In this document: positions 11,594-31,837 of the stretch, one piece after another
How the letters are laid out: every line of letters begins with the position of its first letter
Position numbering within the stretch: the first letter of the stretch is position 1
Source: Escherichia coli
GTDB lineage: Bacteria > Pseudomonadota > Gammaproteobacteria > Enterobacterales > Enterobacteriaceae
NCBI RefSeq assembly: GCF_003334355.1
Contig: NZ_QOWP01000004.1
Length of the DNA: 64,000 nucleotides
Strand: one strand, 5' to 3'
The notes under the pieces: generated by a model
The model's input: the letters and a program-made list of their open reading frames with translations, nothing else
Told to the model about the DNA's origin: nothing
Database searches by the model: none
Translations under genes and position numbers: made by a program

Positions 11594-11620
11594 AAAAAAA
11601 ACGCCGGATTAACCGGCGTC
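11594..11620 (-). terminator. Rho-independent terminator after fadD
   Basis: On the minus strand: acgccgg-ttaat-ccggcgt hairpin followed by a T8 run. Confidence 0.7.
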
Positions 11621-11638
11621 TGACGACTGACTTAACGC

Positions 11639-13324
11639 TCAGGCTTTATTGTCCACTTTGCCGCGCGCTTCGTCACGTAATTCTCGTCGCAAAATTTTTC
11701 CGACGTTAGATTTCGGTAACTCATCACGAAACTCCACCAGCTTCGGTACTTTGTAGCCCGTGAGCTGACGGCGGCAAAAGGTCACCAGTGACTCTTCGGT
11801 AAGCGATGGATCTTTTTTCACTATGAAGATTTTCACCGCTTCACCACTGGAGCCGGAAGGTACGCCAACAGCCGCGACTTCCTGTACGCCAGGATGCTGC
11901 ATGACGACATCTTCAATCTCGTTGGGATAGACGTTAAAACCGGAAACCAGAATCATGTCTTTTTTACGATCGACAATGCGCAGGAACCCTTCTTCATCCA
12001 TCACCGCGATGTCGCCGGTGTGTAACCAGCCATTTTTGATGATTTCATCGGTAGCATCGGGACGCTGCCAGTAACCCAGCATCACCTGCGGTCCTTTGAC
12101 ACAAAGCTCACCCGGTTGACCTGGTGGTACTTCATTATCATCATCATCCACCAGTTTGGCTTCCGTCGACGGCACCGGCAAACCGATGCTACCACTATGA
12201 TAATCAATATCATATGGGTTAACGCTGACCAGCGGCGCACACTCGGTAAGGCCATAGCCTTCCAGCAGATACTGTCCGGTCAGTTTCACCCAACGCTCTG
12301 CCACCACTTGCTGCACTGGCATCCCACCGCCTGCGGAAAGATGCAGACTGGAGAAATCCAGCTGCTGGAACTCTTTATTGTTCAGCAACGCATTGAACAA
12401 GGTGTTAACGCCAGTGATAGCGGTAAACGGATATTTCGCTAACTCTTTTACCAACCCTGGAATATCACGCGGGTTAGTGATAAGCAGGTTCTGCCCACCC
12501 AGTTCGATAAACAGCAGGCAGTTAATGGTCAGGGCAAAAATGTGATACAGCGGCAGTGCCGTTACTACCAGTTCTTTACCTGGATGCAGCAACGGCCCAT
12601 AGGTGGCGTTGACCTGTTCCAGGTTCGCCAGCATATTGCGGTGAGTCAGCATCGCGCCTTTCGCCACACCTGTGGTGCCGCCGGTGTATTGCAGGAAGGC
12701 TAAATCTTCCGGCACCAGTTCGGGTTTGACGTACTGCATCCGGTAGCCGTTATGCAGTGCGCTACGAAATGAAATGGCATCTGGCAGATGGTATTTCGGC
12801 ACCAAACGCTTGATGTATTTAACAACGAAATTGACTACCGTGCCTTTTGCCGTAGATAGCTGATCGCCCATACGGGTCAGAATTACGTGCTGAACGGCGG
12901 TTTTATCAACCACTTTTTCCAGTGTGTGAGCAAAGTTAGACACGATAACAATCGCCGATGCGCCGCTATCGTTAAGCTGATGCTCAAGCTCACGCGGGGT
13001 ATACAACGGGTTAACGTTTACGACGATCATCCCGGCACGCAAAATGCCAAACAGCGCCACCGGATATTGCAATAAATTAGGCATCATCAACGCAACGCGA
13101 TCGCCTTTCTTCAGCCCCAACCCTTGTTGCAAATAAGCGGCAAACGCGCGACTGCGTTCTTCCAGCTTGCGGAAGGTCATCACCTCCCCCATATTCACAA
13201 ACGCAGGCTGATCGGCGTAGCGCGCGACCGACTGCTCAAACATATCTACCAGAGATTGATAACGGTCAGGGTTGATCTCCGTCGGAACGTCCGCGGGATA
13301 ACGGTTAAGCCAAACCTTCTTCAA
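11639..13324 (-). CDS. fadD: Long-chain fatty acid-CoA ligase FadD
   Basis: Acyl-CoA synthetase motifs; TTG start at 13322-13324 with GAGG SD gives a 561-aa product ([14 protein letters not shown]...). Confidence 0.93.
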
Positions 13325-27472: not shown

Positions 27473-28324
27473 ATGGTTGATACAACTCAAACTACCACCG
27501 AGAAAAAACTCACTCAAAGTGATATTCGTGGCGTCTTCCTGCGTTCTAACCTCTTCCAGGGTTCATGGAACTTCGAACGTATGCAGGCACTGGGTTTCTG
27601 CTTCTCTATGGTACCGGCAATTCGTCGCCTCTACCCTGAGAACAACGAAGCTCGTAAACAAGCTATTCGCCGTCACCTGGAGTTCTTTAACACCCAGCCG
27701 TTCGTGGCTGCGCCGATTCTCGGCGTAACCCTGGCGCTGGAAGAACAGCGTGCTAATGGCGCAGAGATCGACGACGGTGCTATCAACGGTATCAAAGTCG
27801 GTTTGATGGGGCCACTGGCTGGTGTAGGCGACCCGATCTTCTGGGGAACCGTACGTCCGGTATTTGCAGCACTGGGTGCCGGTATCGCGATGAGCGGCAG
27901 CCTGTTAGGTCCGCTGCTGTTCTTCATCCTGTTTAACCTGGTGCGTCTGGCAACCCGTTACTACGGCGTAGCGTATGGTTACTCCAAAGGTATCGATATC
28001 GTTAAAGATATGGGTGGTGGCTTCCTGCAAAAACTGACGGAAGGGGCGTCTATCCTCGGCCTGTTTGTCATGGGGGCATTGGTTAACAAGTGGACACATG
28101 TCAACATCCCGCTGGTTGTCTCTCGCATTACTGACCAGACGGGCAAAGAACACGTTACTACTGTCCAGACTATTCTGGACCAGTTAATGCCAGGCCTGGT
28201 ACCACTGCTGCTGACCTTTGCTTGTATGTGGCTACTGCGCAAAAAAGTTAACCCGCTGTGGATCATCGTTGGCTTCTTCGTCATCGGTATCGCTGGTTAC
28301 GCTTGCGGCCTGCTGGGACTGTAA
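27473..28324 (+). CDS. manZ: PTS mannose-specific EIID component
   Basis: ATG 27473 preceded by AGGTGA SD (283 aa); an in-frame GTG at 27464 would add 3 residues. Confidence 0.93.
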   Translation: MVDTTQTTTEKKLTQSDIRGVFLRSNLFQGSWNFERMQALGFCFSMVPAIRRLYPENNEARKQAIRRHLEFFNTQPFVAAPILGVTLALEEQRANGAEIDDGAINGIKVGLMGPLAGVGDPIFWGTVRPVFAALGAGIAMSGSLLGPLLFFILFNLVRLATRYYGVAYGYSKGIDIVKDMGGGFLQKLTEGASILGLFVMGALVNKWTHVNIPLVVSRITDQTGKEHVTTVQTILDQLMPGLVPLLLTFACMWLLRKKVNPLWIIVGFFVIGIAGYACGLLGL

Positions 28325-28339
28325 GACTGTTGTACACTA

Positions 28340-28366
28340 CCGGGGCCTTTTGGCCCCGTTTTTTTA
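28340..28366 (+). terminator. Rho-independent terminator after manZ
   Basis: cggggcc-tttt-ggccccg hairpin followed by a T7 run. Confidence 0.75.
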
Positions 28367-28378
28367 TCTGGAGGATTA

Positions 28379-28837
28379 ATGACAATCACGGACCTGGTAC
28401 TGATTCTTTTCATCGCCGCACTCCTGGCCTTCGCGATCTACGATCAGTTCATCATGCCCCGCCGTAATGGCCCCACCCTGCTGGCAATTCCTTTGCTCCG
28501 GCGTGGTCGCATCGATAGCGTTATCTTCGTCGGATTGATTGTCATTCTTATCTATAACAACGTCACGAATCATGGTGCGTTAATAACGACATGGTTATTA
28601 AGCGCACTGGCTCTGATGGGTTTTTATATATTCTGGATCCGCGTTCCGAAGATCATCTTTAAACAAAAAGGTTTTTTCTTCGCCAATGTCTGGATTGAAT
28701 ATAGCCGAATCAAAGCGATGAACTTGTCGGAAGATGGCGTGTTGGTGATGCAATTAGAACAGCGTCGGCTGTTAATCCGCGTTCGAAATATCGACGATCT
28801 GGAAAAAATTTATAAGCTTCTCGTTTCAACTCAATAA
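28379..28837 (+). CDS. yobD: UPF0266 membrane protein YobD
   Basis: 152-aa membrane protein; recognised as YobD. Confidence 0.9.
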
Positions 28838-28882
28838 GTTATGAATTTAGCCAAAGCTATGTTTAGTGTATTTTTAATAATC

Positions 28883-28903
28883 AGACATAGCTTAGGCTAT
28901 ATT
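28883..28903. promoter_or_regulatory. MntR-type palindromic operator upstream of mntP
   Basis: agACATAGCttaGGCTATatt is a near-perfect palindrome of the MntR type; a further GCTATGTTT half-site lies at 28857-28865. Confidence 0.5.
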
Positions 28904-29034
28904 ACCTCTTCCCTTATTTGTTATTTATTTTAACGTTTCATTGATATATAAATCTAAATGTAAATCGTTATCAATAAAGCAATGAAATAATATATTCCAA
29001 CAGTTGTTTTATATTCTCAAAATATGTTAAGGTT

Positions 29035-29235
29035 GCGCCCTCATTTGGGGAGTAGCCGATTTCCAGATTCCGGAAATGTACGTGTCAACATACTCGTTGC
29101 AAAACGTGGCACGTACGGACTGAATACTTTCAGTCAGGCGAGACCATATGCACATCAATCGCTATGCCTGCATGAACGCGAAAACCATCGCGGCTTGTTG
29201 TTCATGTATGCATGTTTGCTGGGGGCGATGATGTG
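29035..29235 (+). promoter_or_regulatory. yybP-ykoY manganese riboswitch in the mntP leader (boundaries approximate)
   Basis: Leader of about 225 nt before the mntP ATG containing the conserved tttGGGGAGUAGcc element and a downstream GGCGAGACC segment; the 81-codon ORF in the track here is most likely non-coding. Confidence 0.6.
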
Positions 29236-29265
29236 TTTTATGGATACCCCGGTCAGGACATTGTC

Positions 29266-29832
29266 ATGAATATCACTGCTACTGTTCTTCTTGCGTTTGG
29301 TATGTCGATGGATGCATTTGCTGCATCAATCGGTAAAGGTGCCACCCTCCATAAACCGAAATTTTCTGAAGCATTGCGAACCGGCCTTATTTTTGGTGCC
29401 GTCGAAACCCTGACGCCGCTGATCGGCTGGGGAATGGGCATGTTAGCCAGCCGGTTTGTCCTTGAATGGAACCACTGGATTGCGTTTGTGCTGCTGATAT
29501 TCCTCGGCGGGCGAATGATTATTGAGGGTTTTCGTGGCGCAGATGATGAAGATGAAGAGCCGCGCCGTCGACACGGTTTCTGGCTACTGGTAACCACCGC
29601 GATTGCCACCAGCCTGGATGCCATGGCTGTGGGTGTTGGTCTTGCTTTCCTGCAGGTCAACATTATCGCGACCGCATTGGCCATTGGTTGTGCAACCTTG
29701 ATTATGTCAACATTAGGGATGATGGTTGGTCGCTTTATCGGCTCAATTATTGGGAAAAAAGCGGAAATTCTCGGCGGGCTGGTACTGATCGGCATCGGCG
29801 TCCAGATCCTCTGGACGCACTTCCACGGTTAA
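29266..29832 (+). CDS. mntP: Manganese efflux pump MntP
   Basis: ATG 29266 gives 188 aa ([25 protein letters not shown]...); duplicated-halves membrane topology. Confidence 0.92.
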
Positions 29833-30638: not shown

Positions 30639-30730
30639 GACAACTCCGGCAGGATACTAAAGGCCGCAAGTGTAACGCGAATCACGCGGCGGGCAAATAT
30701 CCGAACGCCAGGAGCGAAGATAAAGCATAG

Positions 30731-30757
30731 TAAAAAGCCTCGCATTCGACGAGGCTT
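30731..30757 (-). terminator. Rho-independent terminator after cspC
   Basis: Minus strand: gcctcg-tcgaatg-cgaggc hairpin followed by a T-run. Confidence 0.6.
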
Positions 30758-30803
30758 TATAGCGAGATTGAAGCGTATTCACACTTCAGATCAGTGGATT
30801 CGA

Positions 30804-31013
30804 TCAGATAGCTGTTACGTTAACAGCTGCCGGACCTTTCTGGCCGTCCTGAATTTCGAACTCAACGTTCTGACCTTCAGCCAGAGTTTTGAAGCCATTA
30901 CCCTGGATAGCGGAGAAGTGTACGAACACGTCTTTGCTGCCATCAGCCGGAGTAATGAAGCCAAAACCTTTAGACTCGTTGAACCACTTAACCTGACCTT
31001 TAATCTTTGCCAT
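30804..31013 (-). CDS. cspC: Cold-shock-like protein CspC
   Basis: 69 aa with RNP motifs (KGFGFI, VFVHF). Confidence 0.95.
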
Positions 31014-31025
31014 TTGAAAAATTCC

Positions 31026-31169
31026 TTAGATTGTTTTCTTCGCCCGCAGGCATAACATAGATAAAACTGACACATTACTGCATGAGGCACCAATATAAGG
31101 CTCGGCAGAGAAGCGGTATTCAACGTCAACGTGTTTACTCAGGACTTCTTTACTGAAAATGCCACACAT
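31026..31169 (-). CDS. yobF: Small protein YobF (47 aa), upstream gene of the yobF-cspC operon
   Basis: Minus-strand translation [47 protein letters not shown]; stop 12 nt before the cspC start; below the ORF-track cutoff. Confidence 0.75.
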
Positions 31170-31837
31170 AAACAGAACTGTACCTCGTTTAACCCGAAAT
31201 CTGTTATCACATACAACGTTAATTATGGCAAGCCATTTTTAAACATGTCTCGATCAGACGCACAAATCTCGATACGTCTTCCACTTTTTTTGCACACTTA
31301 TGCAACGGAATACGCGCCGATATATCATTGTGCTTAACCTTGCCAGTTCAGGCAGATACTTAAACTGGCGTAGTTTCTAACATAGTTCAATAAGTTCAGT
31401 TGTTCCAGGCCAGTGGGAGAAGTTATTACATAGTGCGTGCAATATCACATTTTTTGCTATGCAATGAATAAAAAGTTATATCACTTTTTCTCATAAAACA
31501 GTCAGTTAACGGCTATCAATTACCCTAAAGAGAAGTCAATCCCCAAAGGGATTGAAAATTTAAAATAAGAAAAATTGATGAATGAGCAAAAAATCAAGAG
31601 AGAAACGTTTCGCTAATAAATAATACCACGCTTAATCACAAATCCGATGTAAACATCCTAATAAATTAATGAGGAAAATATCTTTTTCTGATATCCCGTT
31701 ACGCAAATAAATAATATGATAATTATTTGAAGTCAGACCAGAGTTTTAATTTGAAGCAGTTGCACCATGGCAGTGCGTATAATCAGGATGAATTGAGTAA
31801 CCCTTCAACGACGGGGTTACTCAAGATTGAGGAAGGA

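Follow-up and report, generated by a model that had tools for sequence, protein, structure and literature searches.

The closest described system to the DNA considered here is the mntP (yebN) region of Escherichia coli K-12, in which a promoter activated by MntR and Fur and silenced by H-NS is combined with a yybP-ykoY riboswitch (PMC12153347, PMC11647493). We have analysed the region upstream of mntP in a stretch of 64,000 nucleotides (nt) of E. coli DNA (assembly GCF_003334355.1, contig NZ_QOWP01000004.1), called the window below, for which a first-pass annotation made from the letters alone had proposed two layers of manganese sensing, one by protein and one by RNA, on this one efflux gene. 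It is the same locus as in K-12, and nothing of substance differs between the two. We regard it as virtually certain that this is the native, already known regulatory region of mntP, the chief manganese exporter of E. coli, with MntR sites and a manganese riboswitch, in which Mn is sensed twice. The control of mntP by MntR, Fur, H-NS, the riboswitch and Rho has all been published, for this same object and not for a relative of it. The two proposed layers are thereby supported, although the published ones exceed two, as Fur, H-NS and Rho come in addition. The gene is thus a textbook case of efflux under a metal-sensing protein plus a metal-sensing RNA, with nothing biologically new, and its value here is that of a calibration point, since the call made from sequence only was correct.

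The second yybP-ykoY member of E. coli, alx (ygjT), likewise acts on a Mn exporter gene as an ON switch of translation and has a P1.1 switch helix (PMC12153347). It has a three-way junction, a divergent L3, a response to alkaline pH and an intrinsic terminator stem in the expression platform, whereas the mntP aptamer has a four-way junction and its platform is described as a single helix (PMC12153347). The aptamers of Lactococcus lactis yoaB and Xanthomonas oryzae, as far as Price 2015 is cited in PMC12153347, share with that of mntP the four-way junction, the arrangement in two coaxial legs, the docking of L1 with L3 around Mn2+ and the conserved GGGGAGUAG, GAGACC and CAACAUAC-type loops. The mntP leader is unlike the L. 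lactis one in its output, since it has no intrinsic terminator under riboswitch control and relies on an anti-P1.1 helix that forms over a long range, before the ribosome binding site. In L. lactis, the yybP-ykoY element controls such a terminator and is a transcriptional switch.

On the protein side, mneP and mneS of Bacillus subtilis are similar to mntP in that Mn-loaded MntR activates the exporter gene via several upstream boxes, all of which must be filled, so that efflux is turned on at higher Mn than that at which uptake is shut off (PMC8632737). There are three boxes there compared to two at mntP, Bacillus has no H-NS, and mneP is without a riboswitch (PMC11647493). Another parallel is ftnA, where Fe-Fur reverses H-NS silencing. 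In the account given of Nandal 2010 in PMC4676285, a far-upstream metalloregulator displaces H-NS from AT-rich DNA. By analogy, anti-silencing of this type is likely to be the logic also of the MntR sites found at about −147 and −187 relative to the mntP transcription start. The regulator and the gene are different ones, however, and for mntP the statement about anti-silencing comes from a review (PMC8632737).

The manganese aptamer and its alternative fold

The window is E. coli chromosome. Many complete E. coli chromosomes match the ca 1.5 kb around the mntP leader with 100% identity, and the same region was found in 5423 of 5426 genomes, with four of the 5423 matching genomes lacking full coverage. 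The gene order is manY-manZ-yobD-mntP on the plus strand, followed by rlmA, cspC and yobF on the minus strand. Compared to K-12 MG1655, the 428-nt intergenic region between yobD and mntP has only three differences (28955, 28961 and 29190). None of them lies inside the aptamer or the MntR sites, and two fall in a Fur-like box (28955, T/C; 28961, T/A) that is discussed further below. For the comparative analysis we used 80 mntP loci from Enterobacteriaceae, one genome per species, from which 72 distinct aptamers and 70 distinct platforms were aligned and 77 orthologous loci were taken for the MntR sites; the genome scan confirmed 312 mntP relatives. The elements of the leader that concern the aptamer are the following.

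29041-29265, plus strand: mntP 5′ untranslated leader, 225 nt (+1 set from published numbering)
29042-29150, plus strand: yybP-ykoY Mn2+ aptamer, four-way junction (Rfam RF00080, covariation, RNAalifold)
29042-29048 with 29144-29150: P1.1 switch helix of the aptamer
29049-29055 plus 29139-29143: L1
29056-57 with 29137-38: P1.2
29059-29077: P2
29078-29116: P3, with L3 at 29085-29094
29118-29135: P4
29266-29832, plus strand: mntP coding sequence, manganese efflux pump, 188 residues (annotation by the NCBI Prokaryotic Genome Annotation Pipeline, PGAP, and in K-12)

That the mntP leader carries a yybP-ykoY riboswitch is supported by the covariance-model match, the conserved L1/L3 core, the covariation of the four-way junction, and the literature (PMC12153347, PMC9603457, PMC11647493). 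The Rfam 15 model RF00080 (manganese, yybP-ykoY) matches positions 29039-29135 with E=4.4e-9 and 41.6 bits, and the aptamer is located in the leader directly upstream of the gene of a Mn2+ exporter. The metal-binding loops are all in place, namely L1 (GGGGAGUAG) at 29047-29055, GAGACC opposite to it at 29140-29145, and L3 (UCAACAUAC) at 29085-29093. The yybP-ykoY hallmarks that had been named in the first-pass annotation are also confirmed: GGCGAGACC is found at 29137-29145, and tttGGGGAGTAGcc is present too, at 29044-29057, the earlier placement at 29045-29058 being one base too high; GGGGAGTAG is located at 29047-29055. Among the 72 aptamers, no variation is seen in L1 and in GCGAGAC, a single position varies in L3 and the final C of GAGACC is more than 90% conserved, while the P2 and P4 loops vary freely in both sequence and length.

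The covariation was examined with five measures, 500 shuffles and slid controls. The four-way junction derived from E. coli was found to be paired in 92% of 2519 cells in the 72 aptamers, to be compared with 24-47% in the slid controls. Changes on both sides were seen for 19 of the 35 pairs, and none of the 500 shuffles reached any of the five measures. RNAalifold, starting from the alignment alone, yields the same P1, P2, P3 and P4.

Published experiments on this very riboswitch include isothermal titration calorimetry (ITC) and leader-lacZ fusions, together with pH effects (PMC9603457), reporter and probing data (PMC12153347), and a riboswitch reporter, ITC and Rho termination (PMC11647493, PMC9603457). 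An apo crystal structure of the E. coli mntP aptamer is cited in PMC12153347 as PDB entry 4Y1M.

We now turn to the expression platform, for which the following elements are needed.

29144-29163, plus strand: 5′ half of the anti-P1.1 helix of the OFF state, beginning with the 7 nt of the P1.1 3′ strand (minimum free energy fold, covariation)
29224-29243, plus strand: 3′ half of the OFF-state helix (GGCGAUGAUGUGUUUUAUGG), pairing with 29144-29163; this part of the platform is conserved
29164-29213, plus strand: expression-platform hairpin (inverted repeat, alignments), corresponding to the published single helix at ca 175 nt
29247-29268, plus strand: conserved CCCCGG (29247-29252), Shine-Dalgarno AGGA (29255-29258) and mntP start codon (29266-29268) (conservation)

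The 3′ strand of P1.1 has an alternative partner in the platform. In the unconstrained minimum free energy fold of the whole leader P1.1 is broken, 29144-29163 pairs with 29224-29243, and the GGGG released in this way (29047-29050) is paired to CCCC (29247-29250), just 5′ of the Shine-Dalgarno sequence. RNAalifold of 38 short-type leaders leads to the same alternative fold, including the GGGG/CCCC pairing, and there the 5′ GUC also pairs with GAC of the Shine-Dalgarno region. In the 70 distinct platforms the OFF helix is 95% paired (21-48% in the slid controls), double changes are seen for 9 of its 18 pairs, and none of 500 shuffles reached four of the five measures. Since the four-way junction and the OFF helix each covary, both folds are under selection, and two mutually exclusive RNA structures maintained in this way are the signature of a working riboswitch. 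Co-transcriptional probing has shown that the single platform helix folds at transcripts of ca 175 nt and that P1.1/L1 is invaded at ca 205 nt unless Mn is present (PMC12153347). The position of 29224-29243 fits this published 'riboswitching point' at ca 205 nt.

It is important to point out that the platform is not uniform. The aptamer and the anti-P1.1 helix are common to Enterobacteriaceae, while the hairpin inserted between them is lineage-variable: it varies in the Escherichia, Citrobacter and Klebsiella-type leaders and is missing from the short Enterobacter-type leaders, where the distance from GAGACC to the ATG is ca 77 nt as compared to 126 nt in the window. The Escherichia version amounts to ca 50 nt (29164-29213), to which most of the compared E. 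coli add an apical insertion of 12-13 nt; other Escherichia species and clades are without this piece (ca 29180-29192), which is present in the window.

The apex of the hairpin, with CGCGAAAACCATCGCG and then GCTTGTTGTT, looks like a small terminator. We have considered the terminator-like hairpin at 29177-29192 as a conserved terminator and rejected it, as it is the apex of the platform hairpin and an insertion specific to E. coli.

Promoter, reading frames and start codon

Positions in the leader were numbered from a transcription start (+1) at 29041. With this choice the published A11 (L1) and A48 (L3) land on the adenines 29051 and 29088, the aptamer ends at nt 110, and the leader has the length of ca 225 nt that was stated in the first-pass annotation. 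The promoter and the longest open reading frame (ORF) that overlaps it are as follows.

29004-29033, plus strand: mntP promoter, with −35 TTGTTT (29004-29009), 18-nt spacer and extended −10 TGtTAAGGT (29025-29033), read from the sequence relative to +1
29024-29269, plus strand: 81-codon ORF, not a gene (ATG inside the promoter; phase of insertions and deletions)

The block 29004-29039 is strongly conserved among the orthologues. A simple sigma-70 consensus scan did not call the promoter at 29004-29033 and proposed instead 28874-28903 and 28968-28996. These two were rejected as chance matches in AT-rich DNA, in favour of TTGTTT-18-TGtTAAGGT, because the latter is conserved and fits the published numbering.

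One possible objection is that the leader is protein-coding, that is, that a small protein or leader peptide is made from either the 81-codon ORF or a 27-codon one (29148-29231) and that the observed conservation is that of coding sequence. Both ORFs do exist, and the annotation in public records goes partly in this direction, with a 40-residue PGAP product (WP_000547919.1) in O157:H7 and a 'hypothetical protein' under the leader match in four further genomes. Stop-free frames of at least 60 codons over the aptamer are moreover common in the orthologues. This last test is uninformative, however, as open frames are common over the conserved aptamer, and the phase of insertions and deletions was used instead. 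Only 10 of the 59 orthologous aptamers that differ in length from that of E. coli do so by a multiple of 3, and the substitutions compensate each other within RNA helices. The ATG of the 81-codon ORF (29024-29026) precedes +1, and its TG is that of the extended −10 element. A search of NCBIfam with both leader peptides gave no match, and no gene is annotated here in K-12. The view taken in the first-pass annotation, that the 81-codon ORF is most likely not a gene, is thus borne out, and a coding role of the leader is very improbable.

The 27-codon ORF on the plus strand is Cys-rich and begins with an ATG within the P1.1 switch helix, on its 3′ strand. This ATG is confined to CCATATG sequences, found in Escherichia and a few Citrobacter, and the frame is broken by a 1-nt insertion in O157:H7 and by a 13-nt deletion in E. 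albertii. Beyond Escherichia neither the ATG nor the frame is conserved. The O157:H7 insertion leads to the 40-residue product mentioned above, whose frame closes in ATGA at the start of mntP. A spurious 'hypothetical protein' thus spans the leader in at least one O157:H7 genome. One can speculate that the Escherichia-specific hairpin, together with the AUG in P1.1 and its upstream ORF, might form an extra, undescribed regulatory layer, for example a platform on which Rho could load or pause, or a peptide encoded in the leader, the initiation of which could be gated by the state of P1.1. We consider this unlikely; if true, the Escherichia additions would tune the strength of the Mn relief of termination relative to the Enterobacter-type leaders.

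The mntP start at 29266, as given in the first-pass annotation, agrees with that of PGAP. An in-frame ATG at 29212, at which the mechanical ORF list begins, would add 18 residues. It was rejected and 29266 kept, because the extension would cross the conserved platform RNA and non-triplet insertions and deletions and is without a Shine-Dalgarno sequence of its own; the alignment near 29243-29247, within the extension (29212-29265), has gaps of 1 and 2 nt between species.

The MntR sites and the upstream DNA

Upstream of the promoter, the following elements were identified. The MntR motif ACATAGC-N4-GCTATGT was searched for across the 64-kb window, with mismatches counted.

28845-28862, unstranded: MntR-type operator, distal site A, ATTTAGC-caaa-GCTATGT (ATTTAGCcaaaGCTATGT), 2 mismatches, centre at ca −187.5
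28885-28902, unstranded: MntR-type operator, proximal site B, ACATAGC-ttag-GCTATAT (ACATAGCttagGCTATAT), 1 mismatch, centre at ca −147.5
28903-29003, unstranded: AT-rich tract, GC content 0.23, candidate H-NS-silenced DNA (composition; a role of H-NS is suggested)
28954-28972, unstranded: Fur-box-like conserved block (CTAAATGTAAATCGTTATC), centre at ca −78, tentative, 13 of 19 positions as in GATAATGATAATCATTATC

The palindrome agACATAGCttaGGCTATatt, which the first-pass annotation had singled out, is located exactly at 28883-28903 and is indeed of MntR type, with the same motif as upstream of mntH and mntS. The additional half-site GCTATGTTT is also present, at 28856-28864 and not, one base off, at 28857-28865. 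It is more than a half-site, however, since it constitutes the right half of a complete palindrome (28845-28862), 40 base pairs (bp) from the other one. With at most two mismatches allowed, these two are the only sites in the 64 kb. The expectation at this level is ca 0.2 matches in a shuffled window and 0.0012 in the 428-nt intergenic region after shuffling, and two matches were obtained in none of 5000 shuffles. At up to three mismatches the number of motifs in the window is not significant (5 found, 2.3 expected).

In K-12, mntH has a perfect match to the motif just upstream of its start codon (ACATAGCctttGCTATGT) and the same motif is found at the start of mntS/rybA (ATATAGCacagGCTATAT). 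Both genes are MntR targets and are repressed (PMC11647493, PMC8632737). The perfect palindrome upstream of mntH (positions 1722-1739 of locus L082) lies inside the annotated small-protein gene ypeD (b4819; L082 1688-1777), which overlaps the mntH start.

The position of site B is occupied in all of the 77 orthologous loci, starting 158-163 nt before L1. Two sites are present in 69 of them, 40-45 bp apart (51 in one case), and the other 8 have a single site, at the position of site B. The core ATAGC/GCTAT positions are 93-100% conserved. Conservation within the spacers ranges from 36 to 68%, with the exception of base four of the site B spacer (100%), and at each site three of these four bases are at 36-59%. 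Conserved half-site cores with drifting spacers are the clean footprint of a dimeric protein.

The two sites also mirror each other, giving a 19-nt, 89% complementary inverted repeat (28844-28903) right after the yobD stop codon. No canonical yobD terminator was found by the scan, and readthrough RNA could fold at this repeat. Weak Rfam matches to miRNA families at 28833-28914 arise from the same inverted repeat and are meaningless in a bacterium.

It could accordingly be argued that the palindromes are not MntR operators but the arms of an RNA hairpin that terminates yobD, with 19 bp and a 22-nt loop, or else sites for another regulator; the place just after the yobD stop and the scan result for other terminators would be in line with the hairpin. 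Each site is, on the other hand, palindromic by itself and has the motif of the repressed mntH and mntS, the conservation of cores and not of spacers is what is expected for a dimeric protein site, and there is no U-tract directly after the stem. In addition, the Mn induction of mntP that is seen in a riboswitch-deleted strain is lost without mntR (PMC11647493). We therefore give this alternative hardly any weight and keep the assignment to MntR.

At the repressed targets the motif overlaps the core promoter or the start, which is not the case at mntP. With the centres at ca −147.5 and ca −187.5, the upstream position fits an activating or anti-silencing role, not repression, and agrees with the literature on MntR activating mntP. 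The distance is too great for ordinary contact with RNA polymerase. According to a review, H-NS silences mntP, and MntR and Mn-Fur relieve the silencing (PMC8632737).

Regarding Fur, the 13 of 19 agreement of the Fur-like box with the consensus is not significant alone in AT-rich DNA (P~0.1), and with the A of K-12 at 28961 it becomes 14 of 19 by hand count. Nevertheless, no other block between the MntR sites and the promoter is as well conserved as this box, and because of this conservation it was kept as tentative. Activation of mntP by MntR and Fur, together with MntR footprinting, is reportedly the subject of Waters 2011 (J Bacteriol 193:5887), and Dambach 2015 is said to treat the mntP riboswitch and H-NS.

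Proposed mechanism, output and neighbouring sequence

On the basis of these results and of the literature, the following mechanism can be suggested. Mn2+-loaded MntR dimers would bind the two 18-bp palindromes ca 147 and 187 bp upstream of the start, at the border of the AT-rich tract, and together with Mn-Fur they would raise the promoter activity, most likely by relieving H-NS silencing and not by direct contact with RNA polymerase. In the transcript, Mn2+ bound between L1 and L3 would lock the P1.1 switch helix. In the absence of Mn2+, 29224-29243 would capture the P1.1 3′ strand to give the long alternative helix, which would free the 5′ GGGG to pair with the CCCC beside the Shine-Dalgarno sequence. 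Little translation is then expected in this OFF state, and the untranslated leader would be exposed to Rho-dependent termination, while with Mn2+ translation would start and termination would be partly suppressed. The sequence elements, their conservation and the covariation of both RNA folds are observations made here, the Mn binding, the dependence on MntR, Fur and H-NS and the involvement of Rho are taken from the literature, and the route from the state of P1.1 to the ribosome binding site is what we infer.

Several points weigh against this reading. The score of 41.6 bits is below the RF00080 gathering cut-off of 45, no RF00080 is listed by Rfam at mntP at the gathering threshold, and the RefSeq E. 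coli records examined have no riboswitch feature at the mntP leader. The RF00080 alignment, which spans L1, P2, P3/L3 and P4, leaves out the 3′ GAGACC strand, that is, the 3′ strand of P1. Published leader lengths disagree, as the numbering used above implies 225 nt while 229 nt is stated in one study, with +1 then near 29037 (PMC11647493). Finally, the accessibility of the Shine-Dalgarno sequence barely differs between folding with and without the aptamer enforced, and published probing shows no clear Mn-dependent change there (PMC12153347).

As to the first of these points, the covariance-model search that the first-pass annotation had proposed as a check gave a significant E value (4.4e-9) but a score that fell short of the cut-off. 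Orthologous leaders score between 35.5 and 53.1 bits, with 5 of 12 above the cut-off and 7 of 12 below. Because these scores lie around the cut-off, we treat the shortfall as a matter of threshold: the cut-off falls inside the score range of the enterobacterial subgroup, and no feature is missing. There is an annotation gap here, as the mntP riboswitch of E. coli, although proven by experiment, is missed at the curated cut-off of Rfam, which fewer than half of the scored orthologues reach.

The last point bears on the output. The same elements could serve a riboswitch that mainly modulates Rho termination in the leader and early mntP, instead of opening the ribosome binding site. Bicyclomycin raises mntP ca 30-fold, and in vitro termination by Rho takes place within the leader and over the first 147 bp of mntP and is partly suppressed by Mn (PMC11647493). 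The small effect at the Shine-Dalgarno sequence, both in our folding and in the published probing, goes in the same direction. However, translational fusions expressed from constitutive promoters respond to Mn (PMC9603457, PMC12153347), and the release from Rho may itself follow from translation starting, such that the two readings are not exclusive. Taken together, an output mainly through Rho is a possibility to be reckoned with, but the less probable of the two, and control via the ribosome binding site is retained in the mechanism suggested above.

One complete E. coli genome, that of B1172 (NZ_CP120549.1, locus L086), has a deletion extending from inside manZ to inside the aptamer (equivalent to ca 27600-29057 of the window). 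This takes out yobD, both MntR sites, the mntP promoter and L1, and mntP would then follow the man operon with neither of the two manganese sensors.

Other RNA elements were also recognized in the window. The leader and coding region of cspC (30729-31189, minus strand) match the Rfam cspA thermoregulator with 135.7 bits (cut-off 78), and a match of this kind is found beside mntP also in the Kosakonia and Trabulsiella loci. Known small RNAs are the antisense pair SraC/RyeA and SdsR/RyeB at 46676-46820 on both strands (175 and 114 bits), and sroD at 11595-11680 on the minus strand (115 bits).

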